The notes under the pieces were generated by a model. That model saw nothing but the letters and a program-made list of their open reading frames with translations, was not told the origin of the DNA and did no database searches. Shown here piece after piece: positions 5-60,091 of a stretch of 64,000 bases of DNA (positions are counted from its first letter, which is position 1; every line of letters starts with the position of its first letter). Where the stretch lies: IMG/VR virus record IMGVR_UViG_3300033121_002101, positions 132,532 to 196,531 of that record; one strand, written 5' to 3'. A program made the translations under genes and the position numbers. Origin of the DNA: a virus. Lineage: Duplodnaviria; Caudoviricetes.

Positions 5-346
5 ATGCTTTTAAAAGAATCTGAAGGGCATATCATTGGTGAGACTTTGCTGTATGAAAAGCTTTCAGTCTATTATAAGATTGGTAAGAACGGCAGAGAT
101 AGAAAATACATCATAGATTTTTATGATGAAAAAAATAAAACAGCTTATGAAGTTAAACCAGCTTCAAGGGTCAACAACAGAATCAATGTTGCAAAAGCAA
201 AAGCAGCACGAGAACATTTAAAAAAATGTGATATAATATACAAAATAGTTTGTGAAGCTGATATTAAAAAGTTAATAACTTATAAAGAAGCTAAGCTAAT
301 AAAAGATGTCTCTTTTAAGATGAAAAGGAAAAAGCGTGCAAAATAG
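5..346 (+). CDS. PD-(D/E)XK nuclease, TnsA N-terminal / T4 gp4-like (possibly 5' truncated)
   Basis: YIIDF...YEVKP and AKAKAARE...YKIVCE motifs; frame open to window edge. Confidence 0.6.
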   Translation: MLLKESEGHIIGETLLYEKLSVYYKIGKNGRDRKYIIDFYDEKNKTAYEVKPASRVNNRINVAKAKAAREHLKKCDIIYKIVCEADIKKLITYKEAKLIKDVSFKMKRKKRAK

Positions 347-902
347 ATTAGCACTTTTTGTTGTTGGCGCTGACGGTTCTGGCAAAACAGAAATAAGTAC
401 ACGTCTGTCTCAAATTACGGGTATAGAAAGATTTAAGTGTCCATCTGAGAAAGAATGGTTTAAGACTAATTCATTTCATAAGAATTTAGCATTTGATGCT
501 TTGCTTCCGTCATTTTGTAAGCAAACAAATACAAGTTTTATAAGTGATAGAGGATACCCATGCGAATGGGTTTATTCTACTTTTTACAAAAGAGAAACTG
601 ATTATGTTTTGCTGAAAAACTTAGATAAAATGTGGTCAGTAAATGGCGGTGCAATCTTGCATATGACAAGATCAGATTATTCAAAAGTTGAAGACGATCT
701 TGTTGATACTAAAGATTTAAAGTCTATTGATAATCTTTACAGAGATTTTTTAAAGCAATCGCTGTTGCCTTCTATGACAGTGTGCACAGATGATTTTGTA
801 GATGATACATCAATAAACTCATGGATAAAAGGATCAACAAATAAAGTTTTAGACTGGCTTATAAAATTAGACACATACCACGGAATGCTGTTTGCACATT
901 GA
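336..902 (+). CDS. deoxynucleoside monophosphate kinase (thymidylate kinase-like)
   Basis: N-terminal P-loop GADGSGKT and ISDRGYP (DR) motif. Confidence 0.75.
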   Translation: MQNRLALFVVGADGSGKTEISTRLSQITGIERFKCPSEKEWFKTNSFHKNLAFDALLPSFCKQTNTSFISDRGYPCEWVYSTFYKRETDYVLLKNLDKMWSVNGGAILHMTRSDYSKVEDDLVDTKDLKSIDNLYRDFLKQSLLPSMTVCTDDFVDDTSINSWIKGSTNKVLDWLIKLDTYHGMLFAH

Positions 903-907
903 GTTTT

Positions 908-2236
908 ATGTCTGACGATAAAAATCTAAAAAAAGATCCAGGTGAAAAATATCAAGAAGATTTTTTATCTGCTGATGGGTCTGTCATTAACAGACGTTAC
1001 GTTGACAGCAATCTGTTGTCACATGATTTAAGAAAAAGAGTAGATGCTGCAATAAGAACAAAAGTAAGGCATATGACAGGATTCAACAAGAAAATAAAAT
1101 TGCAGCAAAGCGGATTGAGAATAGGATATTCTTTTTGGGGTTTTCTTGGTGATCACAAAATGAGTGATGAAGGTGATAGACTTTCAACACCAGACGGTAA
1201 TGCAACATATTCATGGTCTTTTATTCTAGAGGCTGTTAGAAGAGGCCACAGAGTAATACCGATGATGCCAGATAGAGATAAGCCGGCATGTGATGAATAC
1301 GGTGTCGCAAACTTTGAATCAATAGCGCAGGCACATAGAGTTACTGTTTACACACACTTGGTTGAATCTACAGATGTATTTCATGGAAACGGTAACAGTG
1401 AAAATGATAAGTTTCCAGAATTAGATGTGCTTGTACTTGAGTGGAGATTTCCAATAAAGGGAAGAAATTTTGGTTTGTTGCCAGTAGATCCTGGTTACCA
1501 ACCAGATTTTGACAGACAGACTGCGTTACTAAAGCATTACAGTGACAAGAAAACTAAAATAATAATTTGGGATTTAGACTTAAAATTAACAGAAGAAGAT
1601 GAAAAAACTTGGCCGATTTCTTCAATCATTGAAACAAGTGTACATCCAATTCAGCAAGTACACAAGCGCGTGCAAGTTGAACCACCTGTTTATATTGATT
1701 CATTGATGGAATGGCCGACAGTTTTGGCAACAAATATGTTGTCATATATTGGTTCGAGGTATGAACGTGATGATGTAATTGATCACTGGATTAGACCAAT
1801 TGCAAATAGAGAAGGGTGTAGAGGTAAAATACACTTTTACGGAAATTGGATGAAAGATCTATCTGAGTTAACATTGCGTTGGCCTGGAGTATGTTTTAAT
1901 GATAGAGTAACTTTATCTGAGTTTAAAGAGATATTAAGATGTGCAGCAGGAGTTCCTCTGCTTGCAAAAGAAGAATATAGAAAAAGAGGTTTTATAACGC
2001 CAAGAGTATGGGAAGCTCTTGCATTCGGTTCAATTCCTGTTGGACTACACGGTCATGCTGCAATATCAAAATATACTGATTTTGTTGCAAAAGATCCAGA
2101 CAATTTAAAAGAAATTTCACTTGAATTACTTTCAATGAGTCTTGAAGACCGTGATAAAGAAAGAAAAAAAGCAATTGACAAGATTAAATTTATGGATGTA
2201 AAATATTTTATGAATACGTTAGAAGGACTTTTCTGA
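908..2236 (+). CDS. GT-B glycosyltransferase, T4 DNA beta-glucosyltransferase-like
   Basis: C-terminal YIGSR...HFYGNW...KEEYRKRGFITPRVWEALA resembles the sugar-donor domain of T4 Bgt (recalled as NFITLRVWE); ORF track starts at 899, first ATG at 908. Confidence 0.7.
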   Translation: MSDDKNLKKDPGEKYQEDFLSADGSVINRRYVDSNLLSHDLRKRVDAAIRTKVRHMTGFNKKIKLQQSGLRIGYSFWGFLGDHKMSDEGDRLSTPDGNATYSWSFILEAVRRGHRVIPMMPDRDKPACDEYGVANFESIAQAHRVTVYTHLVESTDVFHGNGNSENDKFPELDVLVLEWRFPIKGRNFGLLPVDPGYQPDFDRQTALLKHYSDKKTKIIIWDLDLKLTEEDEKTWPISSIIETSVHPIQQVHKRVQVEPPVYIDSLMEWPTVLATNMLSYIGSRYERDDVIDHWIRPIANREGCRGKIHFYGNWMKDLSELTLRWPGVCFNDRVTLSEFKEILRCAAGVPLLAKEEYRKRGFITPRVWEALAFGSIPVGLHGHAAISKYTDFVAKDPDNLKEISLELLSMSLEDRDKERKKAIDKIKFMDVKYFMNTLEGLF

Positions 2237-2283
2237 TGTGGTTAAAAAGATTTTTTATTAAAGATATTGAGGAAGAAAGTAAT

Positions 2284-2658
2284 ATGGCAAAAAAAGTTTT
2301 TACGTATAAAGTTCATGGTGACGGTGTAAAGCCGGGAGTTGCTCCACACGGTTTAGTTTTAAGGTCTCCAATAGACTTATCACTTAAGCCAGGACAAAGC
2401 ACATCTCTTGACTTACTTGTTTCAGTTGATGCATCATGCTTAGCATTTGTACGTAATCCGATCGCTAATGAAATGATAAATGACGGCGATTTAGTCGTCT
2501 ACGTTTCTAATGCTGCAAGCGGTGTTCTTCTGAACGCAGACGAGCGTCCAGTTTTATTTCTTGCGAATAAGTCGCAGTCAAAAACATTTGATGTATCAGC
2601 AAAAGATGCACTAATTGAGTTAGTGCCTCAGCAAGATGTTACAGTAAAAGGAAGCTGA
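2284..2658 (+). CDS. degenerate trimeric dUTPase-fold protein
   Basis: GLVLRSPIDLSLKPGQ and LFLANKSQSKTFDVSAKDALIELV follow the dUTPase spacing, but catalytic motifs (RSG, GVID.DY) are absent. Confidence 0.45.
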   Translation: MAKKVFTYKVHGDGVKPGVAPHGLVLRSPIDLSLKPGQSTSLDLLVSVDASCLAFVRNPIANEMINDGDLVVYVSNAASGVLLNADERPVLFLANKSQSKTFDVSAKDALIELVPQQDVTVKGS

Positions 2659-2659
2659 T

Positions 2660-2962
2660 ATGCCAAAAGGCCGCCCAAGCTCAGGACCTGCTTCTTTCGG
2701 AAGACACGCAATGAAACAAATAATTGCGCGTGTTGATAGAAAGCAGGTAGATGAACTTTATGGCATGCTTAGAGAAGAAGGCATAAGCTTACAAGCTTTT
2801 ATAGCTTTGTGCGTTAAGATGTACATAGAATCAAATCCAAGTATGAGAGCTATGATTGAATCATACAGGAGAGATTTGTATGTTACTAAAAATGAAAAAG
2901 ATAGTGGTGAAGTGTTTTCTGATGATGAGCGTGCTGCAATCCTTCGTGATATCGAAAGGTGA
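2660..2962 (+). CDS. hypothetical protein, possible ribbon-helix-helix DNA binder
   Basis: IIARVD-helix-GISLQAFI pattern; packed in operon. Confidence 0.5.
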   Translation: MPKGRPSSGPASFGRHAMKQIIARVDRKQVDELYGMLREEGISLQAFIALCVKMYIESNPSMRAMIESYRRDLYVTKNEKDSGEVFSDDERAAILRDIER

Positions 2963-2977
2963 TATAATAAATTAATC

Positions 2978-3376
2978 ATGGGAATGAATAGAAAAATAAA
3001 AAGAGCGTCTATGAGATTTGCTTATGATGTTTTATCCAAAAAGTGGAAAGAGCAGTTGTTTAAGCAAAATTTTTATGCTAGACTTATGGGTAACGATAAG
3101 ATACCTGACAGTATAAAAAATGAGATGGTTGGTCGTAAGCCACCTTTTTCTGTTTTCATGAAAGTTATGAATGGTGTGAGTAATCCTGTTAAAGTTATAA
3201 GTGAATCTACGCCAGTAGAATTTATAACATTCGTAGATGAAAACTTAGAAAGCATGGGCAATAAAATTTTTGTGGCGTGGAATTGTTCCAAACATTCAAA
3301 GAGAGCAAACTACAGATGGCGAAAACACCCCGTTCGTCCCAACAGCAACAGAATGACCAAAGCAAGAAGAAGATAA
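2978..3376 (+). CDS. hypothetical protein
   Basis: ORF in operon; 3' end overlaps next ORF. Confidence 0.6.
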   Translation: MGMNRKIKRASMRFAYDVLSKKWKEQLFKQNFYARLMGNDKIPDSIKNEMVGRKPPFSVFMKVMNGVSNPVKVISESTPVEFITFVDENLESMGNKIFVAWNCSKHSKRANYRWRKHPVRPNSNRMTKARRR

Positions 3377-3474
3377 AGCCAGGAGATAGAGTACGCTTTA
3401 AATTGAAACATTTGATGAATGGAAGCTTTGGAATTGTAATTGAAGTTATTGAAGATAAAAAGAAAAAAGAATAA
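3277..3474 (+). CDS. hypothetical protein, KOW-like
   Basis: IKPGDRVRF...GSFGIVIEV; stop overlaps thyX start. Confidence 0.45.
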   Translation: MELFQTFKESKLQMAKTPRSSQQQQNDQSKKKIKPGDRVRFKLKHLMNGSFGIVIEVIEDKKKKE

Positions 3475-4355
3475 TGACTATATCTGCAAGAATAGACACA
3501 GATTCAATAAATGAATCTGGTGATAGAATAACAACATGGATTTTAAGATATCCACGTTTTATTCATGCTGACTTTATGACTCACAGAGTGTTTAGTAGGA
3601 ATGGATCGTCTTCAAGAGCTAGGCGTGCTACTAACATTCTAAAAGAAGTTGTTTTAGATCCCGTTGTCCCAATAGAGTGGGGCAAAAATGGAAAAGGCAT
3701 GTCAGCAGATAAGACATTAAGCAGTTTTAAATCTTGGCTTTGCAAGAAAATTTGGTTGTCTACAAGATTGCCTGTCGTAGCGTCTGTTTGGCTTTTAAAC
3801 AAGATTGGTTTGCACAAGCAGTGGACGAATAGATTACTTGAGCCGTGGGCTCACATCACTGTTATAATGACTGCAACTGAAATGGATAATTTCTTTGCAT
3901 TACGCGATAGCGATAAAGCACAACCAGAAATTCATAAATTAGCCTCTCAAATGAAGAGAGAATACAACAACTCTATTCCTGTACTTTGCATGAAAGGTGA
4001 ATGGCACATTCCTTTGTTAACACAAGCAGAAAGAGATAGACTTACATCTGTGAATTTACGTTCTAGAGGATTTTTTCTTCCAGATAATACAGGTGAAGAT
4101 CTGAAATGGCTTTCTGAAACAATACGTGTATCAACAGCAAGAGCTGCGCGTGTATCGTACAACAGAACAGAAATGATTAAATCTAAAGAAGAAGATTTAG
4201 ATTTGCATGACAAGTTAAAAAGTGATGGTCATTGGTCACCATTTGAACACTGTGCATCAGCTGAACCTGGTGTAGAATGGGTTGGCAATTTTTATGGTTG
4301 GGCTCAATATAGAAAATCATTTATGAACGAATCAGGTTCAGATAGGAATTCATGA
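3474..4355 (+). CDS. thyX: FAD-dependent thymidylate synthase
   Basis: YPRFIH.DFMTHRVFSRNGSSSRA (RHRxxS motif variant), HKQW.NRLLEP, ARVSY, HWSPFEH. Confidence 0.88.
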   Translation: MTISARIDTDSINESGDRITTWILRYPRFIHADFMTHRVFSRNGSSSRARRATNILKEVVLDPVVPIEWGKNGKGMSADKTLSSFKSWLCKKIWLSTRLPVVASVWLLNKIGLHKQWTNRLLEPWAHITVIMTATEMDNFFALRDSDKAQPEIHKLASQMKREYNNSIPVLCMKGEWHIPLLTQAERDRLTSVNLRSRGFFLPDNTGEDLKWLSETIRVSTARAARVSYNRTEMIKSKEEDLDLHDKLKSDGHWSPFEHCASAEPGVEWVGNFYGWAQYRKSFMNESGSDRNS

Positions 4356-4798
4356 TGAACAATAAGTGCAGATGCAAAGAATTTGAAGAATGTAGACACT
4401 GTACTCATAAAGTTACTAAAAAAATATCATCTATGACAATGGCTGGTTTTTTGAAAACAGAAGAGCTAACAGATAATCTGATCGTTGATATCGACGATGA
4501 AGATATTAAAAGCATTCTCAGAGAATGCTTTGAAACTCTGTCTGACAAAGGAACAGATTACTCAGCAGGTACAAAAGATCGCCTTTATAATTTCAGACGA
4601 GCATCTGAAGAGATTGGTCTTCCAATGAGAAAGATTTTGTACATCTACCTGTGGAAACATTTAAGTGCAGTTACAAAATACTGCAACGATGGAGAACTAA
4701 AGTCTGAATCATTAAAAGGAAGAATAGTCGATGCAATCAACTACTTGCTTCTTCTTTATAAAATTGACTGTGAAGAAACTTTAGCAAGTAAAATTTAA
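4352..4798 (+). CDS. nucleotide-modification-associated domain 1 (DUF1599-like) all-alpha protein
   Basis: KGTDYS...NF...KHL...ESLKGRIVDAINYLLLL pattern. Confidence 0.65.
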   Translation: MMNNKCRCKEFEECRHCTHKVTKKISSMTMAGFLKTEELTDNLIVDIDDEDIKSILRECFETLSDKGTDYSAGTKDRLYNFRRASEEIGLPMRKILYIYLWKHLSAVTKYCNDGELKSESLKGRIVDAINYLLLLYKIDCEETLASKI

Positions 4799-4911
4799 GG
4801 AATTATAATGTTTGCAAATGTAAAAAATTCAACGTGGATTTTTCTTGGAATTGTTCTTTTTCCTTTTTTGCTGTTTTACATTGCTATGAAAGCTATACAA
4901 AGATTTTTTGA

Positions 4912-5391
4912 ATGAATATATTTGTTTTGGATAGAGATCCAGAATTAGCAGCAGCTTATCTTTGTGATAAGCATTGTGTCAAAATGCCGCTTGAATCTGC
5001 TCAAATGCTTTCTACAGTTGTAAACAGTTTTGGCATTGAAACAGAATATAAACCAACCCACACAAAGCATCCGTGTACAATCTGGACAGCTGAGTCATTG
5101 GAAAATTTTCTTTGGCATTCTTTATTAGCAATCTCTCTTTGTAGAGAGTATACTTTTAGATACGGCAAAAAACACAAGTCACAAAGTGTTATCGAAAAGT
5201 GTACAGATATTTGTTTAGATGGTAATATTAAATTTGAACGAAAAGAAATGACAGATTTCGCTCAAGCGATGCCAGAAGAATGTAAAGACAAAGATGCTGT
5301 CGTTGCATATAGAAAATACTATATGATGAAAAAAAATGATATTGCAAAATGGAATAAATGTAGAAGTGCACCAGAATGGTGGGTGATATGA
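4912..5391 (+). CDS. pyrimidine dimer DNA glycosylase / endonuclease V family
   Basis: MNIFVLD...CDKHCVKMPLESAQMLST, HPCTIW, QAMP...AYRKYY. Confidence 0.85.
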   Translation: MNIFVLDRDPELAAAYLCDKHCVKMPLESAQMLSTVVNSFGIETEYKPTHTKHPCTIWTAESLENFLWHSLLAISLCREYTFRYGKKHKSQSVIEKCTDICLDGNIKFERKEMTDFAQAMPEECKDKDAVVAYRKYYMMKKNDIAKWNKCRSAPEWWVI

Positions 5392-6887
5392 AAGTTTGTC
5401 TTATTATTCCGCCATCACCGTTTCTTATGGATGAAAGAGTATTCCCTTCGCTGGGAATACTTCGCGTTGCTTCATCATTAGAAAATCAAAATGTAAAAGT
5501 AGATCTGATAGATCTTTCAGGTGTACAAAATTATCTTGATGTCGTATCGAAATATGTATCTGAGAATGATACTCTGCTGTATGGAATAACATCTACAACT
5601 CCGCAATTTCCTGCTGTTTGCAAAATTGCTTGTTTAATAAAGCAAAAAGAAAACGTTTCTATAACACTCGGCGGGCCGCATGCAACTCTTGTTGCTGCTG
5701 CTGTTAAGGGTGAAGATAAAAGAAATGTTGTCGGAAGAGCACATCATGCTATGAATGACATGACTGGTCGATTCGACACTATAATTGCTGGCGATGGAGA
5801 GATGATACCTCACAACGTAATGTTTGGTGGTGGTATCGTTGATGCAGATGATCCAAATGGAAAGTATTTCATGACAGATTATCAGTACTCAAGTGCTCCA
5901 AAAGAAGCCAGATCTCTCATAGATTTAAGTTCTTATCATTACAAGATAGAAGGACATGAAGCAACAACTCTGATCGCTCAGTTGGGTTGTCCATTCTCAT
6001 GCGGCTTTTGTGGTGGACGTAAATCACCAATGTTGAGAAGAATTCGTTCACGCCCAACATCAACAATCATAAGTGAAATTAGAGACCTCCACACAACGTA
6101 TGGATACACTGGTTTCATGTTTTATGATGATGAGCTCAATGTTTCAAATTCAATGATAGAATTGATGGACTCTATCTATCTTTTACAAAAAGAATTGAAT
6201 ACAGAATTTAGACTTAGAGGCTTTGTAAAAGCAGAACTGTTTACAGATGAACAAGCAGAATCAATGTATAAAGCTGGGTTCAGATGGCTGCTAACTGGAT
6301 TTGAATCTGGTAGTCCTCGTATTCTAAAAAACATCCAGAAAAAAGCTTCTCTTGAAGACAACACTCGTGCAGTTGAAATTGCAAGAAGACATGGACTCAA
6401 AGTGAAAGCGCTGATGTCAATTGGACATCCAGGTGAATCAGAATACACAATAAATGAAACTAAAAATTGGCTGCTAGATGTAAGGCCAGATGATTTTGAT
6501 TGCACGATAATAACGACGTATCCAGGAACTCCATACTATGATGATGCTGTTTTGACAGCTCCGGGCATTTGGACGTATACTGCAAAAAACGGTGACAAAC
6601 TTCATGCAGATGAAGTTGATTATACAATCACCGCTGATTACTACAAGGGCGCGCCTGGGGGTGGTTATAAAGCTTATGTACATACCGACCACCTAACATC
6701 AAGTGAGCTAGTCACACTACGTGACACGCTAGAGGATTCCGTTAGGCATACGCTTAATATACCATTTAACCAATCAGCTGCTGCAATAAATTATGAGCAC
6801 TCGATGGGCCAAAACATTCCTCAGAATATTTTGAGGAGTTCAAAAAATGATTCTAAAAAACGAGTTTACTTGAATCTTGTGAAGTAA
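5388..6887 (+). CDS. cobalamin-binding radical SAM enzyme (class B methyltransferase-like)
   Basis: B12-binding N-terminus (PSLGI, GITSTT, LGGPHAT, GDGE), CPFSCGFC cluster motif, FYDDE, GFESG, GHPGE, YPGTP. Confidence 0.9.
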   Translation: MKVCLIIPPSPFLMDERVFPSLGILRVASSLENQNVKVDLIDLSGVQNYLDVVSKYVSENDTLLYGITSTTPQFPAVCKIACLIKQKENVSITLGGPHATLVAAAVKGEDKRNVVGRAHHAMNDMTGRFDTIIAGDGEMIPHNVMFGGGIVDADDPNGKYFMTDYQYSSAPKEARSLIDLSSYHYKIEGHEATTLIAQLGCPFSCGFCGGRKSPMLRRIRSRPTSTIISEIRDLHTTYGYTGFMFYDDELNVSNSMIELMDSIYLLQKELNTEFRLRGFVKAELFTDEQAESMYKAGFRWLLTGFESGSPRILKNIQKKASLEDNTRAVEIARRHGLKVKALMSIGHPGESEYTINETKNWLLDVRPDDFDCTIITTYPGTPYYDDAVLTAPGIWTYTAKNGDKLHADEVDYTITADYYKGAPGGGYKAYVHTDHLTSSELVTLRDTLEDSVRHTLNIPFNQSAAAINYEHSMGQNIPQNILRSSKNDSKKRVYLNLVK

Positions 6888-8409: not shown

Positions 8410-9390
8410 ATGAGCCATTTCGCAGGCAAAGCAAGAGTACAAAAAGTATCAGATATTGTCGTACCAGAAAGTTTTTATAAGAGGATTTCTACAGGCATTG
8501 AGACTTTAGATTTGATTCTTGGTGGTGAAGAGCTACCAGGCATTATGCCTGATACAAGTATTCTTGTTTCTGGTAAGCCGGGTTCATGCAAGTCTACGCT
8601 TCTTTTGCAGGTAATGCATAACATTTCAAAGAGCGGAAAAAATTGTCTTATAAATTCTGGTGAAGAAGTACCAGAAAGAATTGCATTGAGAGCTGAGCGT
8701 CTTGGGCTTAAAGACGTAGACTTTTCTGTTTCTACTTTTTCTCATAGAGAAGATTTAGAACTGTATGTTCGTAATGAAGGAATCAATGTACTTGTTGTTG
8801 ATTCTGCGCAAGCGCTTGCAAGCTCTGATGAGAAAGAGCGCGTGCATAAAATTGTTAAGTCATTAACGCAACTTGCGCATGAAGCTAATGTCACAGTTAT
8901 TATCGTTGGCCATGTGACAAAAGCAGATATTTTTGCTGGCAAGAACTCAATTGAGCATGATGTTGATGTTCATTTTAGAATTGCTCTTGACAAAGATTCT
9001 GGCGAAAGAAAAGCGCTAACAACGAAAAACAGATTTGGCCCCGCGCATATTGAATATGATATGCTTGTAGGAAAAAATGGACTAATTGAGTTCATGAAAA
9101 CAGCAGAAGAAGGAGCTTCAGCAAAGGCTCAAGATAAATTTGTCGGAGAAGTCATTAGACTTCTGACAGATGGAGAAAAGCTTAGCGGGTATTCTCATGA
9201 TGAATATGAATCACTAAGACAATTCGGGAGGTCTGGTGGTTTTATGAGAGCAATGCTTTCGCGTGCAGCTGCAGAACTTGAGTCAAAAGGTTATATTGTT
9301 TGTAGACAAGTTATTAATAGACGAGAACACATCTACTTGGATGTACCAAGTGATAAGTATGATGAGCAAGAAGAAGGATTAATTCAATGA
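8410..9390 (+). CDS. RadA/Sms-like RecA-family ATPase lacking Zn finger and Lon domain
   Basis: ISTGIETLD.ILGG, GKPGSCKST, SGEE, VVDSAQ, GHVTK, EHDVD, KNRFG. Confidence 0.85.
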   Translation: MSHFAGKARVQKVSDIVVPESFYKRISTGIETLDLILGGEELPGIMPDTSILVSGKPGSCKSTLLLQVMHNISKSGKNCLINSGEEVPERIALRAERLGLKDVDFSVSTFSHREDLELYVRNEGINVLVVDSAQALASSDEKERVHKIVKSLTQLAHEANVTVIIVGHVTKADIFAGKNSIEHDVDVHFRIALDKDSGERKALTTKNRFGPAHIEYDMLVGKNGLIEFMKTAEEGASAKAQDKFVGEVIRLLTDGEKLSGYSHDEYESLRQFGRSGGFMRAMLSRAAAELESKGYIVCRQVINRREHIYLDVPSDKYDEQEEGLIQ

Positions 9391-12760: not shown

Positions 12761-13804
12761 GTGAGTGATTATCATCCAATCGTTGTTAAACTTAAAAATG
12801 TAAGTCCACATCCAAATGCAGATAGCTTGTTTACAGCAGACGCTGGCGGCTATCCTGTCGTTTTTAAATCTGGTCAGTATGCAGAAGGTGATTTAGTTGC
12901 ATACATTCCAATTGATTCTATCGTACCAGACACAGAAGAGTGGTCTTGGCTTGGCGGGCACAGGAGAATCAAAGCTAAGAAATTGCGCGGAATTTATTCA
13001 ATGGGACTTGTTGTCCCTGTACCAAATGGGCTTTCTGAAGGTGATTCTGTTATGGAAGCGTTAGGCCTTCAGAAGTATGAAGCCGATATAGATGTACGCG
13101 CATTCATGAATACAGATAATGAAAAAGATCCTGGATTCATGCCATGTTATACAGATATTGAAAGTCTCAGAAGGTATAAAAGTGTTCTTTTGCCTTCGGG
13201 TTTTGTACGTGAAGAAATTCAAACAGAATTTGGATATACTAAAAAAGTTTTAATGGCTGAGCTTGGTGCTGTTGGTGAAGAAGTTGTTATAACTGAAAAG
13301 ATCCACGGTGCAAATGCACGTTATTGCTGGAAAGACGGAAGGATGTGGGCTGGTTCAAGATCTTGCATTAAAGCAGAAGCAGAAAACAACATGTGGTGGA
13401 GTGCTGCTGAGAACATCTGTTTGAAAGAAAAGCTTGCAACTGTACCAGATGTAGTTCTTTACGGTGAAGTATTTGGTCAAGTACAGGATTTAAAGTATGG
13501 AAAGAAAGGCTTTCATTTAGCTTTCTTTGATGCGTTCGACATTAAGACCGGTAGATATTTTGATTATGATGATTTTGATAAACTTATCACAGATCTTAAA
13601 CTAACGAAAGCCCCTGTTCTTTATAGAGGACCGTGGAGCATGTCTCTTACAGATCTTGCTGAAGGCACTACTGTGATTGGTGATGGAGCCAATGTGATTG
13701 AAGGTTTTGTTGTAAAGCCTGTCAAAGAAAGATATGATGACGCGCTTGGCAGAGTAATCTTAAAGATGGTTGGGCAAGGTTATACGCTTAGAAAAGGTGG
13801 ATGA
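12761..13804 (+). CDS. RNA ligase, DRB0094 family (N-terminal OB fold + Rnl2-like domain)
   Basis: HPNADSL, YIPIDS, KLRGIYSMG; motif I EKIHGAN, YGEVFG, FDA, EGFVVK. Confidence 0.88.
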   Translation: MSDYHPIVVKLKNVSPHPNADSLFTADAGGYPVVFKSGQYAEGDLVAYIPIDSIVPDTEEWSWLGGHRRIKAKKLRGIYSMGLVVPVPNGLSEGDSVMEALGLQKYEADIDVRAFMNTDNEKDPGFMPCYTDIESLRRYKSVLLPSGFVREEIQTEFGYTKKVLMAELGAVGEEVVITEKIHGANARYCWKDGRMWAGSRSCIKAEAENNMWWSAAENICLKEKLATVPDVVLYGEVFGQVQDLKYGKKGFHLAFFDAFDIKTGRYFDYDDFDKLITDLKLTKAPVLYRGPWSMSLTDLAEGTTVIGDGANVIEGFVVKPVKERYDDALGRVILKMVGQGYTLRKGG

Positions 13805-51937: not shown

Positions 51938-52004
51938 CTGAAAATCTATCTCTTTCTAGACATCATGCAAACAACAAAATGTCTAGAAAGAGATAGACTA
52001 TCAG
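51938..52004 (-). repeat. 19 bp perfect inverted repeat, H2-related hairpin
   Basis: TCTATCTCTTTCTAGACAT / ATGTCTAGAAAGAGATAGA. Confidence 0.7.
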
Positions 52005-52507
52005 TCCCAGTAGGACTTACTTAGGGCAATGGCTTCCCAGTTTGCAGCCATGTCGATATAGAAATCGACACTGTTTTTGGAGTACCCTTTGAAAGAATAC
52101 CACTCTGCCATAGCAAAGTAATACTCTTTCATGTCATCTTGACTGCACCACGGCCCTGGATACTTTGGCATTTTGAACTCCACCTTCTTCAACTGCTCAC
52201 CGTCGAAGCTGCGCCACTCGTGGAAGTCGCCCTTGTCGTTGTCGTTCAAGTTGTAGACCTGCATGCCTTGTGTGTCGGGATTCCCGCCGAACACCACGTT
52301 GAGCTCGATGGCATCCATGGTCTCGTCGTCCAGCTCGGCCAGTGACCTGAGCTCGCTGATCTGGTCCTCTGTCGCCCCGCACGCCAGGGCGTAGAACCCC
52401 ATGCAGCACATGCGACCATCGGTTGGGCGCAGCAGCATTGACCCGCGGTGATTCCCTCTGAACCACTTCGACCTGACAACCGTGAACTCTGTTGCTTTCT
52501 TGATCAT
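52001..52507 (-). CDS. hypothetical protein, compositionally mosaic
   Basis: GSMLL...GRMCCMGF...QVYNLND; GC-rich 5' two-thirds, AT-rich 3' third. Confidence 0.7.
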   Translation of the reverse strand: MIKKATEFTVVRSKWFRGNHRGSMLLRPTDGRMCCMGFYALACGATEDQISELRSLAELDDETMDAIELNVVFGGNPDTQGMQVYNLNDNDKGDFHEWRSFDGEQLKKVEFKMPKYPGPWCSQDDMKEYYFAMAEWYSFKGYSKNSVDFYIDMAANWEAIALSKSYWD

Positions 52508-52541
52508 CGTATTATCCTTGTTTCTCGAGTGTAGCCAAGTG

Positions 52542-52649
52542 ACAGCCAAGAGATGGCTTGTGGGAGTTTGCGAAAACAGCCACCATGAAAATGAGCTGGC
52601 TCCGATGACCTTCTAGCCACCAGCATCCCACAAGCCATCTCTTGGCTGT
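52542..52649. repeat. 24 bp perfect inverted repeat with 60 nt spacer
   Basis: ACAGCCAAGAGATGGCTTGTGGGA (52542-52565) / TCCCACAAGCCATCTCTTGGCTGT (52626-52649). Confidence 0.85.
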
Positions 52650-52691
52650 TGGACAAGCATGTTGTCCAGCCGAGGCACCAAAAGAAGAAAT

Positions 52692-53282
52692 TTACTTCCT
52701 CTTGTAGACAAACAGACTGTCACGAATGCTATCCCATCTAGGGATATCAACAACCTCAGTACACTCCCATTCATCTCTGAGTAGACTGAAGAACTGATCA
52801 TCACCAGTACAACCACCCCAGCTCTCACCGATGTAGATGAGAGTGTTACCCTTGTATGCAGTAAGAGCATTATAGGCAAAGGGATCATCGTAGCATGGCC
52901 AGCAGAGCATCAGAGCATGCTTGCCGCCACTGTAGTACTGGAGGACAGAGGTATCACCCACTGCCACATCAGTCCACATCGTTTCGAACTCGTAGCCACA
53001 CACGTTCATCTTCGTTGTCGGATCCTTGTCGTAAGCTTCGACAACGATACCACGAGAACGAAGCAAGTAGGCCCAGTAACCAGCGCCAGCTCCCAGTTCA
53101 ACGATCGGACCGTACTTCGCGATCGTATCGAGTGCCTCGTTGTTTGGAATGGCCCATGAGAACTTCTTGACGCACATCTCTCGTGCTCTGAGCCGAGCAA
53201 GAGCACTTCCGGGCTCTCGCCAATCACGATTGCCACCATCGACAGCTTGCCAAGTGTAGATGTACTCGTTGATGACGCTCAT
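52692..53282 (-). CDS. class I SAM-dependent methyltransferase-like protein
   Basis: FSWAIP, IVELGAGAGYWA, LMLCWP, IYIGE...CTG. Confidence 0.72.
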   Translation of the reverse strand: MSVINEYIYTWQAVDGGNRDWREPGSALARLRAREMCVKKFSWAIPNNEALDTIAKYGPIVELGAGAGYWAYLLRSRGIVVEAYDKDPTTKMNVCGYEFETMWTDVAVGDTSVLQYYSGGKHALMLCWPCYDDPFAYNALTAYKGNTLIYIGESWGGCTGDDQFFSLLRDEWECTEVVDIPRWDSIRDSLFVYKRK

Positions 53283-53411
53283 TGCTTTATCTCACTCCTT
53301 CTGGAGTACCATACTCCATACAACATTCTAACTTTCGCTAGACTGCTCTATGCAGTACGATCTTGTGCGGGCAAACAACATCTTTATTGTTTGCTACATG
53401 CCAGTCAGAAC

Positions 53412-53678
53412 CTAGTTGAACTTCATTGAGTTGGCCTCACGCCAACAATCAATGACATACTTTGCTTTCTTGATAGAACATCCGCAACGCATACGGTATG
53501 CTCTTACTGCATTTACCAACTGATAGCTCTTCAGCATTTCAATCTCCATGCTGTTGAGCTCTTGGCACAATGACTGAACGTGAGCTTCACATGCATCAGC
53601 GATCATCTCAGCATCGGCTGAGCTGAGCGTCTTGACGTATGCCAGCACCATTTCGATCGTGATCATTTTAACACTCAT
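53412..53678 (-). CDS. hypothetical protein with L7/L12 C-terminal-like motif
   Basis: VNAVRAYR...GCSIKKAKYVID. Confidence 0.55.
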   Translation of the reverse strand: MSVKMITIEMVLAYVKTLSSADAEMIADACEAHVQSLCQELNSMEIEMLKSYQLVNAVRAYRMRCGCSIKKAKYVIDCWREANSMKFN

Positions 53679-53917
53679 TCTTTCTGGAGCAACATACTCC
53701 TTGCAATCGTCCAGCCACTATGAGCTGGAAAATTTCAAGCATTATGTTCTCTCTGGGATTCTTGCTGCGCAAGGGTCTGAACGATAACGCTCCGACGGCG
53801 CAAGTGAGTAGTTTCGAGGGCGCGGGGGGAAATGGAAAAAGCTCCGCGTCTACGTCTATTTCCGAGAATCCTTCCGCGGAAGTCAAAACGCCCCTCTGCT
53901 CACAATCCGAGGGCTTT

Positions 53918-54358
53918 CTAGCCCTCTTCACTGATCTTCAGCGACGCGACGAACGATTGACGCTCGTACTTGGTCACTTGTCGCATAAGCTCTGGCAGTC
54001 CGAACTCTGCGCGGAGCTCATCGATCTCTCGAGCTCTGCGGAGTACATGGTCGCCGGGCTTCGGCTTGTCTGGCATCGAGGCGATCTCCATCTCGATCTT
54101 GTCTTCCATCAAGCACAGTTGCTGCTCAACGAAGTCAGCTGCTCTGTCAGACAGCTTCAATCGAGGACTCTCGTCCTTCACGATGCAGTGTGTTGGCGGA
54201 GGCAGATGCCGTAGCTCAGTGCAGCCCTTCGACAGTGCATTCCACGACAACACGTGCAGATTCCGTGGATCGAAGTGCGTTGCTTCCTTGTGCAAGAACA
54301 ACCGAGGCTGGTCTGCACGCAGCTCTTCGACAGGAATGACGATGTACTTGTCTTTCAT
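53918..54358 (-). CDS. hypothetical protein
   Basis: follows H1 cassette; AGGAG RBS. Confidence 0.7.
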   Translation of the reverse strand: MKDKYIVIPVEELRADQPRLFLHKEATHFDPRNLHVLSWNALSKGCTELRHLPPPTHCIVKDESPRLKLSDRAADFVEQQLCLMEDKIEMEIASMPDKPKPGDHVLRRAREIDELRAEFGLPELMRQVTKYERQSFVASLKISEEG

Positions 54359-54481
54359 TTCTATTCGCTCCTTCTAGAGCTCTATGCTCCATAGGCAAGA
54401 CCAGCATTTCTACTGATCAAGTCTATGCAGCATGCCACCGTCACCAGTGGCAAACCGCATGCCGTTCGTGATCCAGTTGCT

Positions 54482-54640
54482 CTAGCTGCGGAGCATGTGC
54501 TGCTTGCCCTTGCGCACGATGCTGGCGCTCTCCTCAGCACACTGCGCCAGCGTCTTGTAGCCAGCGGCAGCCAGCTCTTTGGCATCGGCCTCGAGCTGCG
54601 TAACGGTCGGCTTCACGATCAGGTACTTGCGCATCATCAT
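54482..54640 (-). CDS. small hypothetical protein (paralogue of 32623)
   Basis: LEADAKELAAAGYKTLA; follows H1 cassette. Confidence 0.65.
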   Translation of the reverse strand: MMMRKYLIVKPTVTQLEADAKELAAAGYKTLAQCAEESASIVRKGKQHMLRS

Positions 54641-54736
54641 TGGAGTGTATCTTCTTTCTGGAGCTCCATGCTCCATACAACGTTCCAACATTCCGTTGAA
54701 CCGTTCTATGCAACTCAGAACTCTCTCTTCTGCTGC

Positions 54737-54982
54737 TCAACCAGCGTTGTTCTTCTGCAGCAGCAGACCGAGGCCCATCACGATGTGGCGCAGATCGAGC
54801 ACCATCTGCTCCGAACCGCTTCGGAACATCAGATCGACGCTGTAGTTGCAGACCTCAAGGGCCAGCACACAACAATCATCGAATTGCTGCAGACGATGGC
54901 TGATCTCATCGTGCAGCTCGGTGATCCGAGCCAGTTCGCTGTCGTCCAGACGCTCGGCTAGCGGCAGGTTTTCGTTGCTCAC
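54737..54982 (-). CDS. hypothetical protein
   Basis: GTG start overlaps stop of micro-ORF (GTGA). Confidence 0.6.
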   Translation of the reverse strand: MSNENLPLAERLDDSELARITELHDEISHRLQQFDDCCVLALEVCNYSVDLMFRSGSEQMVLDLRHIVMGLGLLLQKNNAG

Positions 54983-55032
54983 TTGCGCGCTCCGAAGAGC
55001 AGCTTGAGCCACATGCGCTTGAGAGGGGTCAT
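54979..55032 (-). CDS. 17 aa micropeptide MTPLKRMWLKLLFGARK
   Basis: follows H1 cassette; paralogue of 56211-56273. Confidence 0.65.
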   Translation of the reverse strand: MTPLKRMWLKLLFGARK

Positions 55033-55127
55033 TTTACTCGTACCTTTCCGGAGCTCTATGCTCCATGCAACGTTCCAACGTTCACCGTTGAACCGCTCCA
55101 TGCAACACGTAACTCAGAAGCAACTCT

Positions 55128-55292
55128 TCAGCCAAGTGCTTCTAGATCTGCAACAATGCGGTCCAGATCTGCTTCTGTCACATCATCACGATCGTTGCGT
55201 GCGATGTGGACAGCCTCACGACAGAAGCGCTTGGCCTCAGCAAGCTTCCAGCGCAGCACTTTGATCTCGTCTTCTGTGCTGTTCTTCTTCAT
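55128..55292 (-). CDS. small hypothetical protein
   Basis: ATG just after previous stop. Confidence 0.6.
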   Translation of the reverse strand: MKKNSTEDEIKVLRWKLAEAKRFCREAVHIARNDRDDVTEADLDRIVADLEALG

Positions 55293-55297
55293 CTCTT

Positions 55298-55531
55298 TCA
55301 CTGGTGCTGCGGGTCTTGCGGATCGATGCGACCATCCATCTGCCACGGCTTCTGCCACTCGAGCTCGAGCAGCTTCCACGCCATCTCGTCGTGCGCCGTG
55401 ATGCCGACGATCTTCGTCGTCTTCGATCTGCCATCGGGCAGAGTGCAGGTGACCGTGACGCTGGGATCCTCGACCACCTCGTCGGAAGCGGTCGGATCGA
55501 ACTTCACACCACTGAGCTGAGTGAGCTTCAC
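55298..55531 (-). CDS. hypothetical protein
   Basis: follows H1 cassette; AGGAG RBS, GTG start. Confidence 0.65.
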   Translation of the reverse strand: MKLTQLSGVKFDPTASDEVVEDPSVTVTCTLPDGRSKTTKIVGITAHDEMAWKLLELEWQKPWQMDGRIDPQDPQHQ

Positions 55532-55625
55532 AGAGATTCTCCTTCAGGACATGCCATATGTCCCACAGGCTACTCAAAGAGATGGTCACCTTGAGTAGTC
55601 TGGGGGCCACACGGGCCACGCCACC

Positions 55626-55763
55626 CTACCACACGCACTGGAAGCAGAGGCGAGGATGCTGGGCAGCGATTCGACTGGCCTTGATGAGCTTGTCGAGCCG
55701 GCGCTTCGCTTCGTACCTCGTGATCTCGAACGAACGGATGACGAAGGTCTTGCTCATGTCCAT
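55626..55763 (-). CDS. small basic hypothetical protein
   Basis: follows H1 cassette; AGGAG RBS. Confidence 0.6.
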   Translation of the reverse strand: MDMSKTFVIRSFEITRYEAKRRLDKLIKASRIAAQHPRLCFQCVW

Positions 55764-55862
55764 GGCTGCTCTGTCTCCTTTCAGGACACGAATGTATCCC
55801 ACAGGCAATCTGAAGAATCAAATCTTCAGACAGTCTGGGCGACACACTCACCCGCCAGCGCT

Positions 55863-56111
55863 CTACTCGCTGCAGTCAGCCGCCTTGTTGTGCCAGGCGA
55901 ATTCCACTGCCGCCTTGAGCGCAGCCTTCTGATTGCTGCTGACGTTCCCACAGATGAAGACCTCGGTCGGGTAGCCATCAGCACCCGTGGTCTTCTTGTA
56001 CAGCTCCCACGAGTACGTCATGGTGTTCAGCCCCCTGATGCGGATCTCGTACTTCGAGATCACGAAGTGGATGTCGATGTACTCAACGTACTGAACTTGT
56101 GCGGTGCTCAT
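55863..56111 (-). CDS. hypothetical protein
   Basis: follows H1 cassette. Confidence 0.65.
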   Translation of the reverse strand: MSTAQVQYVEYIDIHFVISKYEIRIRGLNTMTYSWELYKKTTGADGYPTEVFICGNVSSNQKAALKAAVEFAWHNKAADCSE

Positions 56112-56210
56112 CGCTCTCGCTCAAACTTTCTGGGATTGTTTTGGTCCCATAGAAAGCACGATGTTTAGTCGTGCTTTCTGTGCGGCCAACCATCTCAGTG
56201 GCTTCTGCTG

Positions 56211-56273
56211 CTATCGCTTGGTGCCGAAGAGCAGTCGAAGCCAGAACCGGCGAAGCGGAGTGTGCATCTTCAT
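56211..56273 (-). CDS. 20 aa micropeptide MKMHTPLRRFWLRLLFGTKR
   Basis: GAGGAG RBS; paralogue of 54979-55032. Confidence 0.65.
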   Translation of the reverse strand: MKMHTPLRRFWLRLLFGTKR

Positions 56274-56362
56274 GTCAGTCTCTCCTCACGTTCTTCTCCC
56301 TGTCGATCGAGCGACTAACATTAGTCGCTAAACCGATCGGGCAAGCCCGAGAGTATCCAGCC

Positions 56363-56863
56363 CTACCACACGCTCATGACGAACATGTAGTCGCTGTCGC
56401 TCATGCACGAGGCGGGACGGTCGGCCTCGCGCTCGAGCTCGAGCTCGGCGAGCCAGAGCTCCTCCTGCTCCTTCATCGCCTCGTACATGTCGGCCTCGGC
56501 GCTGTCCCAGGCGATGCGCTCCTCGCGCTCCTCATGCTCATTCATCGCCTCGAGTTGTTCGATGAAGTAATCCTCTTCGACAGACGTCATATCGAACGTC
56601 TCGAACCCGCGGGGGAAGAGGTCGGCGAACAGCAAGGACCGCGACCACTTGATCCGGCCGTGCGCGTAGCTGGTCGGCACCTTCGCCCGCGGCGGGTCGA
56701 GGAGCTGCGGCACGTCGCTGCAGTCGTCGCCGTCACCCAAGCGGGCGAGCTGCTTGCCGTACTGTCGAACGGCCTTGTTGTACTGCTTCGTGACGATCTT
56801 CTTCGCCCGCGGGAACAGCTCCCCGGCGTTCAGATCGCTGTGATACTTCGCGATGCCCTTCAT
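56363..56863 (-). CDS. hypothetical protein, basic N-half and acidic C-half
   Basis: follows H1 cassette; GC-rich codons. Confidence 0.7.
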   Translation of the reverse strand: MKGIAKYHSDLNAGELFPRAKKIVTKQYNKAVRQYGKQLARLGDGDDCSDVPQLLDPPRAKVPTSYAHGRIKWSRSLLFADLFPRGFETFDMTSVEEDYFIEQLEAMNEHEEREERIAWDSAEADMYEAMKEQEELWLAELELEREADRPASCMSDSDYMFVMSVW

Positions 56864-56991
56864 CGGCAGTCTCTTTCTGGGACGATGTATCCCACAGGCT
56901 GTCTGAAGAGTCGCCTCCTCAGGCAGTCTGGGGGTCACACCCCGAGTCGCTCATCCTCTCGGCTTGCTCGCTCGGTCCTGCAACCGCTCGT

Positions 56992-57555
56992 TCACTCCGC
57001 GGCGGGGGCGGTCAGGGCCTCGAGCTCGGCGTCCGAGAGGTCGTCACCGATGGCCGGCTCGTCGGCGACCGGCTCGCTCTGGGTCTCGCTCGGGTGCTCC
57101 TCCGACTGGGCGGCCGCGGAGGCGACCGACTGGGCGCGCAGGGAGGCGATCGCGGAGGCGAGGCTGGGCGCCGGCCCCTTCGAACCCCGGGTGCGGGAGG
57201 AGGCGCCCGGCCGCGTGGTGGCGGTCACCGAGTTGAGGGCGGTGATCGCCTTGCTCAGCCAGTCGGCCGAGACCTTGCGGAGGTCGACCCGGACGGACAC
57301 GTTGCCGTTCTCCCCGGGCTCGAGCACCTTGGCGGCGTCGGCCGGGACCTCGAGGCCCATGGCCTTGAGCTCGTCGAGCCCGCCCCAGGCCCAGCCCGAC
57401 AGGTCGGCGTGCGTGCACACGTCGGACTTGTTGGGCTTGGCGACGTACAGCTTGGCGCCCTTGGGCCCGACGAGCTGCATGTACTGCTTGTTCTCGATGG
57501 CCTGGACGGTGGCGGGGGCCGAGACGATGGCGGTGGCGATGGCGGTGGTCTTCAT
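56992..57555 (-). CDS. hypothetical protein, dispersed family A, very GC-rich codons
   Basis: GAGG RBS; ENKQYMQLVGPKGAKLYVAK...HADLSGW. Confidence 0.78.
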   Translation of the reverse strand: MKTTAIATAIVSAPATVQAIENKQYMQLVGPKGAKLYVAKPNKSDVCTHADLSGWAWGGLDELKAMGLEVPADAAKVLEPGENGNVSVRVDLRKVSADWLSKAITALNSVTATTRPGASSRTRGSKGPAPSLASAIASLRAQSVASAAAQSEEHPSETQSEPVADEPAIGDDLSDAELEALTAPAAE

Positions 57556-57649
57556 GGTCTTTTCCTCACAAGGCGGTTGTTGGGCGCAGCTCTAGTCTCA
57601 CGGCACACCTCTTGCGGGCTGCTCGAGGTCTAAGTACTGTGAGCGCTAA

Positions 57650-57870
57650 ATCCCCAATTATAAGGCAACCGCCTTATAATAATATAATATACTTGAATTG
57701 TGACCTGAATGTCACATGAAAAAATATAATTTCACGTGTCGGAAATGTCACATGAAAAAATATATTTCATGTACCGGGTTCATGTGAAAGTCACTTGAAC
57801 AGAAACTTCGCTTAACCCTCGCGCGAGACGAGGCCCATTTTTCACGTACAGTTTTATTTAAATAAACTTC
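57650..57870. promoter_or_regulatory. AT-rich non-coding control region with palindromes and a 21 bp direct repeat
   Basis: ATTATAAGGC-aacc-GCCTTATAAT (57657-57680); AATGTCACATGAAAAAATATA at 57708 and 57744. Confidence 0.65.
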
Positions 57871-57877
57871 AAGTAAA

Positions 57878-58141
57878 CTAGAGAAGGTCCTTGGTGAGCC
57901 CATAAAGCCTAATATAGGCGTCAGTATGACGTTCAGCATATGGCAAAGCTATGCTACGCGCAGCATGTGACATACCTTCTATTGCTAGACGAGCTTGTTC
58001 ATCTGTTATTTCACTCTTAGCTAGCTTATCACTTATACAGAAACAGCAAATTCCATTGTGATCAGCGCCGCCAGGGTAGTAGATGCATTCTCCAGTGTGC
58101 ATATAATCTCTCTCTATTCTATCGTTTCGTGGGTACATCAC
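57878..58141 (-). CDS. hypothetical protein
   Basis: coupled ORF. Confidence 0.55.
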   Translation of the reverse strand: MMYPRNDRIERDYMHTGECIYYPGGADHNGICCFCISDKLAKSEITDEQARLAIEGMSHAARSIALPYAERHTDAYIRLYGLTKDLL

Positions 58142-58377
58142 AGTGTATTAGAATGTGCACCCTTCCAAGTGAAACTGAATGATAGACACATCCATCCTAG
58201 TAGTGCTTCGATGCACATTATCTTGTTCAATCGAGAATCTCCATATGTAGATCCTGTAGAGCCTTGTTCAATTGAAAAACCCAGACCGAAACGTTTTACG
58301 CCACCAAATGGATGCGCAGTTTTCAACTGTACATAAACATTCCTATCTTCACCCAAATGTATCAATTTTTCATACAT
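58138..58377 (-). CDS. hypothetical protein
   Basis: coupled ORF. Confidence 0.55.
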   Translation of the reverse strand: MYEKLIHLGEDRNVYVQLKTAHPFGGVKRFGLGFSIEQGSTGSTYGDSRLNKIMCIEALLGWMCLSFSFTWKGAHSNTL

Positions 58378-59321: not shown

Positions 59322-59330
59322 TGTTTCCTC

Positions 59331-59690
59331 TTAAATGATCGTTACCATGTGCTGGCCGTTGTGAAGTGTCGATAGATGAAACCACTCACCATTTGCATTG
59401 TTGAAGTTTTCATCTAGAAACTTTTTGATTTCACCACCAATCAGCACTTGATCTTCATCAATTGTAAGCCAGCCTGGATTCCGCATTTCTTCGAATTCAA
59501 ATGCTTGACAACATCTGTAAAGAGAATGCGCAAGTATATTCCAGTATTTTACTACCCAGTGTTTTGAAACATAACTTGTAATATCTTTTGCCATGTTTTC
59601 TAGAATTCTCTGCCCAAGCATACTAAAATCGTTATCGCCGAACACGATCAAAACATCTGGTATTCTCTGAATTTCTTGAACTTCTTTCAT
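59331..59690 (-). CDS. hypothetical protein
   Basis: FGDNDF motif. Confidence 0.65.
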   Translation of the reverse strand: MKEVQEIQRIPDVLIVFGDNDFSMLGQRILENMAKDITSYVSKHWVVKYWNILAHSLYRCCQAFEFEEMRNPGWLTIDEDQVLIGGEIKKFLDENFNNANGEWFHLSTLHNGQHMVTII

Positions 59691-59742
59691 TTTGCACTCT
59701 CTTTTTGCACGAAATGTAACTCAGAGTTTCATATTGTAAATT

Positions 59743-60090: not shown

Positions 60091-60091
60091 T

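Follow-up and report, generated by a model that had tools for sequence, protein, structure and literature searches.

A gene run at the start of an analyzed stretch of viral DNA raises the question of whether an uncultured tailed phage (Duplodnaviria; Caudoviricetes) encodes the synthesis of a glycosylated DNA base and, if so, which base receives the sugar and whether a B12-binding radical SAM enzyme encoded in the same run takes part. The stretch, hereafter the window, comprises the last 64 kb (132,532-196,531) of the 196,531-bp IMG/VR virus record IMGVR_UViG_3300033121_002101, which was estimated to be 96% complete and has a GC content of ~36%. All open reading frames (ORFs) from position 5 to ~25,000 lie on the plus strand, and those from a nucleotide kinase to the radical SAM gene (336-6887) form a single co-oriented, tightly packed run. 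The stop codon of the kinase (900-902) overlaps a TTG at 899, with an ATG 6 nt further at 908, and the stop codon of the following glycosyltransferase (GT) gene overlaps the ATG of the next ORF at 2236. Seven genes had been listed in this run by a preliminary description of the window made from the sequence without database searches, and all seven are present where it placed them. The region is probably one half, the downstream one, of a pre-replicative module for cytosine hypermodification that lies on both sides of the DnaE polymerase gene of the phage, and by analogy with known systems the gene set most likely serves to replace cytosine by 5-hydroxymethylcytosine (5hmC), to which a sugar would then be attached. 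Such modifications are of wider importance as glycosylated cytosines shield phage DNA from restriction enzymes and CRISPR nucleases, and also hamper sequencing and phage engineering.

Predicted cytosine hydroxymethylase, glycosyltransferase, and kinase

The preliminary description had seen no ThyA-like hydroxymethylase in the window, which left the sugar acceptor unexplained, and had suggested a look upstream. A search of the whole genome with PF00303 returned one gene (106 bits), a thymidylate synthase (TS)-family hydroxymethylase ~7 kb upstream of the window, and the acceptor is explained since this upstream enzyme is predicted to be specific for cytosine. Its best PDB match was the CMP hydroxymethylase MilA (1.5e-39) compared to 3e-22 for the best true thymidylate synthase. 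Alignment with E. coli ThyA, T4 gp42, RB69 gp48, SPO1 gp29, and phage G gp319 identified the catalytic Cys146, the substitutions L143D and N177D, and the residues Asp169 and Gly173 kept exactly as in T4 gp42, compared to D169N and G173V in the 5-hydroxy-dCMP synthase RB69 gp48. Asp169 and Gly173 were also kept in all 13 hydroxymethylases linked to homologs of the GT, in which residue 177 was Asp (13/13) and residue 143 was Asp in 12 and Glu in one. N177D has been described as the cytosine determinant, L143D/E, which affects water access, as a marker of a non-methyl product, and D169N as diagnostic of 5-hydroxy-dCMP synthases (PMC13326640). As the gp42-type residues agree with these published criteria, by which the TS homolog is a cytosine-specific dCMP hydroxymethylase, this function was assigned to it on the basis of its sequence.

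The TS homolog gp319 of Bacillus phage G was 40% identical to this protein and displayed the same L143D/N177D/D169 signature. Its surroundings in phage G (locus L028, 225,484-242,275) include gp313 annotated as an alpha-glucosyltransferase, the thymidylate kinase gp315, a dCMP deaminase-like gene, and the DnaE-like polymerase gp329, a neighborhood that by analogy suggests an hmC-type modification there too.

The 445-aa GT was modeled by AlphaFold2 (AF2) with a GT-B fold (pLDDT 87.5, pTM 0.81) and an N-terminal extension of 72 residues that was found only in the closest relatives, while the GT family as a whole comprises at least 451 homolog clusters at 90% identity. The top Foldseek matches of the model were the DNA-bound T4 alpha-glucosyltransferase (AGT) and T4 beta-glucosyltransferase (BGT), and superposition on BGT (1qkj) with VIA-align gave a Z-score of 21.2 and a root-mean-square deviation of 3.4 with 302 of 351 residues aligned. 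A comparison of the GT family profile with BGT by hhalign (E 1e-4, 210 columns) paired BGT D100 with E181, R269 with R369, and E272 with E372, all three being invariant in 37 GT family members, and also paired the GGSFRSGQR segment of BGT with the invariant IGSRYER of the GT. In BGT, Asp100 (mutated in 1nzd, according to the title of that PDB entry) is the catalytic carboxylate, and Arg269 and Glu272 bind UDP. The resemblance of the C-terminal FITPRVWE to T4 BGT, noticed in the preliminary description, was reproduced by the profile alignment, which paired it with FITLRVWE. The comparison with family GT63 proposed there upheld the fold and the aligned catalytic and UDP-binding positions and failed to place the protein in the Pfam BGT family. 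A tblastn search with the GT of 50,697 phage records returned no match, and a fold search of BFVD returned generic viral GT-B proteins, including SP-15 glycosyltransferases and proteins named DNA alpha/beta-glucosyltransferase, and was non-discriminating. Sequence and model together suggest a new family related to BGT, in a comparison that covered the GT-B enzymes of Pyle et al. via the text of their publication only (bioRxiv 10.1101/2023.12.21.572611).

The genomic context ties this family to cytosine chemistry. An alignment-based scan of IMG/VR identified 21 GT loci, with GTs 31-46% identical, in which neighbors were counted within 10 kb of the GT. DnaE was present in 17/21 loci, the kinase in 16, an RGP homolog of the RGP/GT75 family in 13, the hydroxymethylase also in 13, the phrog_6802 protein in nine, a MazG-like protein in five, ThyX in three, and the 140-aa ORF in two, while neither the radical SAM gene nor a Pyr_excise-like gene was found in any (0/21 each). 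The recurrent order was hydroxymethylase, MazG, DnaE, RGP, kinase, and GT, and in the four most distant loci (L016, L018, L019, and L020) the GT adjoins the hydroxymethylase directly (~20-140 nt apart), including one locus from a complete 45.6-kb phage genome (L019, genome G014). In the phage studied here, two unknown ORFs, the MazG-like gene, a rubrerythrin-like ORF, the 1,156-aa DnaE, and the 380-aa RGP homolog lie between the hydroxymethylase and the window; three of the ORFs located between the hydroxymethylase and DnaE (phrog_652, phrog_2072, and the rubrerythrin-like one) had no counterpart in the 21 GT loci and were left out of the module. This synteny with a cytosine hydroxymethylase agrees with the suggestion in the preliminary description that the kinase and the BGT-like GT-B enzyme mark a pyrimidine hypermodification module. 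The GT is a probable DNA hydroxymethylcytosine glycosyltransferase, with the hydroxymethylase synteny as the single line of evidence for transfer to DNA. An apparently uncharacterized transferase family with BGT-like catalytic residues is in this way linked to cytosine hydroxymethylases, the phages concerned ranging in size from 45 kb to >400 kb.

The first gene of the run had been called a dNMP kinase, and structural comparison favors the same assignment. The product is a P-loop protein with weak AAA_28 and Tmk sequence matches, and its AF2 model, built from an alignment of 12 relatives (pLDDT 85), matched best to YorR of B. subtilis (3kb2) in Foldseek, followed by deoxynucleoside kinases and Tmk. 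Its family profile also matched RB69 gp45 in hhalign (probability 97%, E 3.5e-11), and in 15/16 kinase-bearing loci the gene directly precedes the GT. Neither a T4 gp1-type kinase nor a canonical Tmk was found in the genome, where this protein was the sole nucleotide kinase identified; for this reason, sequence and model point to a likely hydroxymethyl-dCMP kinase. The same 3kb2 structure was the top match reported for DLP3 gp78 (PMC13326640), and because of this match and the similarity to RB69 gp45, the trio of kinase, GT-B enzyme, and TS homolog is common to 5-hydroxycytosine (5hoC) systems. A YorR/Tmk-like kinase is accordingly a part that hydroxy- and hydroxymethylcytosine systems share.

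RGP homolog and proposed pathway

The RGP/GT75 enzyme family is best known from plant cell-wall synthesis. In the RGP homolog encoded just upstream of the window, DDD112-114 and R151 of an RG-x-PF motif were invariant in 13 phage homologs and aligned with two motifs, DDx and RGYPF, of a UDP-arabinopyranose mutase of known structure (8cid); the Arg of RGYPF is the residue that is reversibly glycosylated in the plant enzymes. From these motifs and by analogy, the protein most plausibly converts a UDP-pyranose to a furanose donor; alternatively, it may add a second sugar. A mutase that supplies the donor has precedent, since Rhizobium phage RL38J1 makes a furanose donor for its DNA with Glf, an NDP-sugar pyranose-furanose mutase (PMC13326640). 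Glf is unrelated to the RGP/GT75 family, so that the precedent is one of function. Both near-complete RGP-bearing genomes contain Ugd and three SDR genes, but a complete path to UDP-arabinofuranose, encoded by the phage and starting at UDP-glucose, is speculative, since UDP-glucuronate decarboxylase is no better a match for the SDRs than 4,6-dehydratases and 4-epimerases. That 5hmC carries a furanose (e.g., arabinofuranose), with the donor made by the phage RGP/GT75 UDP-sugar mutase and transferred by the BGT-like family, is put forward tentatively and remains doubtful. If true, the modified base would be new to DNA, and the RGP family would gain its first role in nucleic acid modification; a literature search found no paper linking RGP or UDP-arabinopyranose mutase with phage DNA. 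The RGP homolog is the candidate sugar-donor enzyme to which the module points.

Folds, conserved residues, residue signatures, synteny, and gene dissociation were observed directly, and every chemical step of the pathway is inferred from them by analogy with T4. The MazG-like pyrophosphatase would convert dCTP to dCMP, and the TS-fold enzyme would convert dCMP to 5-hydroxymethyl-dCMP, of which the kinase at 336-902 would make the diphosphate, host enzymes finishing the triphosphate for incorporation by the phage polymerase. After replication, the GT-B enzyme would move a sugar from a UDP-sugar to the hydroxymethyl group on the DNA in a BGT-like and, by the same analogy, probably inverting reaction with Glu181 as the catalytic base. 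The RGP/GT75 homolog would either supply this reaction with a furanose donor made from a UDP-pyranose or add a further sugar. ThyX would make dTMP and leave the ThyA-fold enzyme free for cytosine, while the B12 radical SAM enzyme would stand outside the module as a sugar-tailoring gene of a glycan island relocated here in this clade.

The logic and parts list of this module are those of the T4 hmC pathway, which includes the gp56 dCTPase, gp42, the gp1 kinase, and the alpha- and beta-glucosyltransferases. The likeness extends to the gp42 signature in the hydroxymethylase, to the BGT fold and the aligned D100, R269, and E272 positions in the GT, and to the location beside a polymerase gene, as for T4 genes 42 and beta-gt. 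In contrast to T4, the phage GT lies outside the Pfam BGT family with Glu at the base position and, in this clade, the 72-residue N-terminal extension, the kinase is YorR/Tmk-like and not gp1-like, the pyrophosphatase is MazG-like, the polymerase is DnaE, and an RGP/GT75 homolog is present in addition. T4-BGT-like GT-B enzymes next to thymidylate synthase homologs are already known to glycosylate phage DNA, and ~28% of the metavirome GT-B contigs of Pyle et al. have adjacent thymidylate synthase homologs (bioRxiv 10.1101/2023.12.21.572611). Those enzymes resemble the phage GT in having an architecture like that of BGT and, at the position of D100, a carboxylate, whereas the words "mutase" and "radical SAM" occur nowhere in that text (bioRxiv 10.1101/2023.12.21.572611). 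What is new here is the particular transferase family, the kinase that accompanies it in a system of the hmC type, and the RGP homolog in tight linkage.

The radical SAM gene and competing explanations

A cobalamin radical SAM enzyme had been recognized in the run by the preliminary description, and the protein did match Radical_SAM (PF04055, 73 bits) and, just over the cut-off of 32.1 bits, B12-binding (PF02310, 32.5 bits). It consists of an N-terminal B12-type Rossmann domain and a radical SAM core with the cluster motif CPFSCGFC (CX3CX2C), of which C205, C209, and C212 are invariant, and it belongs to a family with >4,755 matches and 67% mean column identity. The CX3CX2C core and the B12-type domain are shared with AprD4 and class B radical SAM enzymes, and AprD4 (sugar diol-dehydratase) was the nearest solved structure (E 2.2e-18). 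Unlike the class B radical SAM methylases, the protein was far under every NCBIfam equivalog cut-off (PhpK, HpnR, TsrM, Mmp10, and others), with matches 5- to 30-fold too low and a best score of 97 bits versus 600 for PhpK. The sole tblastn match in phage records was from Streptomyces phage SF3 (24% identity). Inteins (Hint domains) were observed in some radical SAM homologs (P0138 and P0158) and in the DnaE of a close relative (L113:1-1877); inteins are usually found in highly conserved, important genes.

The 81 viral loci of this radical SAM family displayed recurrent NDP-sugar 4,6-dehydratase/epimerase neighbors (29-37 loci), as well as GT4, UDP-glucose dehydrogenase, RpiB, a CmcI-type methyltransferase, GT2, GT11, a PfkB kinase, and cupin. 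The sister jumbo phages L114 and L115 carry the gene inside a glycan island that is collinear gene-for-gene with 20.9-39.2 kb of the genome studied here, between homologs of the genes at genome 29,177-29,800 and 29,924-30,907; in this genome these two genes are adjacent with no radical SAM gene between them. Its position after ThyX and the Pyr_excise gene is common only to the closest relatives, L112 and L113. The gene is probably a displaced member of the glycan island, encoding a sugar-tailoring enzyme and placed in the run by rearrangement. An RmlB-like NDP-sugar 4,6-dehydratase (SDR) gene was also displaced from the island, to genome 98,856-99,839 (33.7 kb before the window), its site in the sister phages being between homologs of genome 34,802-35,347 and 35,365-36,405.

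The preliminary description had proposed that the radical SAM enzyme may methylate the glycosylated base. An enzyme of the same pathway that methylates or tailors the base or its sugar donor would fit the location of the gene, which follows the GT on the same strand at a distance of 3.1 kb without a strong terminator ahead of 8,175, an arrangement kept in the two closest relatives, and the ties of the family to NDP-sugar genes, since a tailored sugar could in principle reach DNA; in other phages, 5hmC receives a heptose that is produced by sugar-activating enzymes of the phage, a cytidylyltransferase among them (bioRxiv 10.1101/2023.12.21.572611). Such a role is nevertheless unlikely: besides its absence within 10 kb of the GT in all 21 loci and its seat inside the glycan island of the sister phages, the radical SAM gene was found in 0/18 GT-bearing records (four at least 90% complete) and the GT in 0/39 radical SAM-bearing records (eight at least 90% complete), with positive controls working for both searches. 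Co-occurrence of the two genes had been proposed as a check in the preliminary description, which named their unlinking in relatives as evidence against its own suggestion. Moreover, a 91% complete genome (G007) has the GT, the RGP homolog, Ugd, and three SDR genes without a radical SAM gene. A role of the enzyme in base modification is therefore unsupported, the gene being unlinked in relatives and seated in viral glycan islands. Dropping it from the pathway prevents the spread of a wrong "methylated glycosyl base" annotation and points a conserved viral family to sugar chemistry; the literature search found no paper on cobalamin radical SAM enzymes together with bacteriophages and nucleotide sugars.

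Several points weigh against a cytosine hypermodification module as the explanation of the locus. The Z-score of the GT to BGT is tied with PimA, BshA, and other GT4 enzymes, so that the fold alone is non-discriminating, the hhalign probability to BGT was just 57%, the catalytic position is Glu versus Asp in BGT, no Pfam BGT match was obtained at E up to 5, and a sub-threshold match to the CgeB-like PF13524 was present (E 0.047). The 21 loci are not independent, four of them (L007, L008, L011, and L013) being near-identical, and many share general jumbo-phage synteny. The D169 diagnostic that separates hydroxymethyl from hydroxy products is based on the enzyme panel of a single paper, it is a guess whether the RGP homolog acts as mutase or transferase and which sugar is attached, and the pathway of this uncultured phage is predicted from its genes. 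The tied scores, which extend to TarM, the CgeB-like match, and the large glycan island of the genome would suit a GT whose target is not DNA (for example, a virion protein, lipid-linked glycan, or small molecule), the neighborhood then reflecting conserved phage gene order. This is improbable considering the distant phages in which the GT, at 31-34% identity, adjoins the cytosine hydroxymethylase, one of them with a complete 45.6-kb genome too small for an island of ~18 kb, the alignment of BGT-specific motifs, and the GT-bearing records that do without the radical SAM gene of the island. Comparably small odds were given to a glycosylated 5hoC as in RB69, DLP3, and RL38J1, whose clusters are also defined by the trio of YorR/Tmk-like kinase, GT-B enzyme, and MilA-like TS homolog, with MilA likewise as the structure that the 5hodCMP synthases match best (PMC13326640) and with a kinase in RB69 (gp45) homologous to that of the phage. 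The TS homolog differs from that of RB69 in having no D169N, Asp169 and Gly173 being kept as in T4 gp42 in this protein and its 13 linked homologs, which predicts 5hmC rather than 5hoC, and the GT profile displayed no detectable similarity to the RB69 gp46 and gp47 halves (gp46:47).

Other genes of the run and the contig end

The features of the 5' part of the window and the module genes upstream of it are listed in Table 1. Compared at the DNA level with cultured phages, the first 8 kb gave a sole match of 95 nt to Yersinia phage YerA41, within the Pyr_excise-like gene. The TnsA-like ORF between the RGP gene and the kinase occurs at that position only in three related loci (L010, L012, and L112) and is probably a mobile insertion.

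Table 1. Features of the gene run in the window and of the linked genes upstream (window positions unless marked as genome).
Feature	Position	Strand	Basis
TS-family dCMP hydroxymethylase (predicted)	genome 124,648-125,553 (6,979-7,884 nt upstream of window position 1)		PF00303
MazG-like NTP pyrophosphohydrolase	genome 126,485-126,976		phrog_12184
RGP/GT75 homolog, 380 aa	ends 53 nt before window		PF03214, 122.8 bits
TnsA-like endonuclease ORF	5..346	+	PF08722, 29.7 bits
YorR/Tmk-like nucleotide kinase, probable 5-hydroxymethyl-dCMP kinase	336..902	+	structure match, RB69 gp45 homology
GT-B glycosyltransferase, T4-BGT-like	899..2236 (ATG start possibly 908)	+	predicted fold, profile alignment, synteny
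140-aa small protein, dUTPase/dCTP-deaminase-like fold; accessory	2236..2658	+	Atlas structural neighbors
Divergent ThyX	3474..4355	+	PF02511, phrog_85
phrog_6802 protein, possibly DUF1599/Nmad1-like	4352..4798	+	phrog_6802 at 2.9e-13
Pyr_excise (T4 endonuclease V)-family protein	4912..5391	+	PF03013, phrog_624
B12-binding radical SAM enzyme	5376..6887	+	Radical_SAM and B12-binding domains

The remaining assignments of the preliminary description fared unevenly. For the degenerate dUTPase fold proposed for the 140-aa protein, the fold-level part stood, as the Atlas model was nearest to dUTPase/dCTP-deaminase proteins (TM 0.61-0.65), and the family-level part did not, with no Pfam match including dUTPase (PF00692) and no dUTPase catalytic motifs seen; the ORF follows the GT only in four related loci (L010, L012, L112, and L113). 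ThyX was recovered, though divergent, by PF02511 (54 bits, above the cut-off) and phrog_85 (7e-59). Its TIGR02170 score of 58.7 bits was under the cut-off of 87.9, no PDB match was obtained by sequence, and its motif reads THRVFSRNGSSSR with THR for RHR, the first Arg being replaced. From its sequence family it is assumed to act as a normal thymidylate synthase and a plain source of dTMP. The Nmad1/DUF1599-like call for the phrog_6802 protein found no backing in the family model, as no Pfam DUF1599 (PF07659) match was obtained at E up to 5, and its sole lead was an Atlas neighbor cluster with 37% PF07659 members; where it accompanies the GT (9/21 loci), the phrog_6802 protein sits 5-9 kb away. 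The DenV-like glycosylase passed the Pyr_excise cut-off (25.9 versus 23 bits, residues 1-83) and matched phrog_624 at 4e-58. Similar genes were identified in 589 phage records, including hundreds of cyanophages, and a gene so widespread is no hypermodification marker. The dUTPase-like ORF, the DenV-like gene, and ThyX are not module markers.

Further features were observed outside the module. The 132-aa product of the ORF at 2978-3376, which matched no family, is very basic and rich in Arg/Lys at its C-terminus and might bind nucleic acid. A KaiC/RecA-like ATPase (8410-9390) and an RNA ligase (PF09414 with OB domain, 12761-13804) occupy the same relative positions in the close relative L112. 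Window positions 52,000-64,000 together with genome 1-2,000 form a GC-rich block (50-71% GC) within the 36% GC phage. Both contig ends share a 12-nt tandem repeat of the GGTGGCGTCGCG type, and an ORF on the minus strand, encoding ATRN/ATRD/ATYS tetrapeptide repeats, crosses the junction that results from joining them. The contig end represents either a circularly permuted genome broken inside a repeat gene or a foreign or chimeric end.

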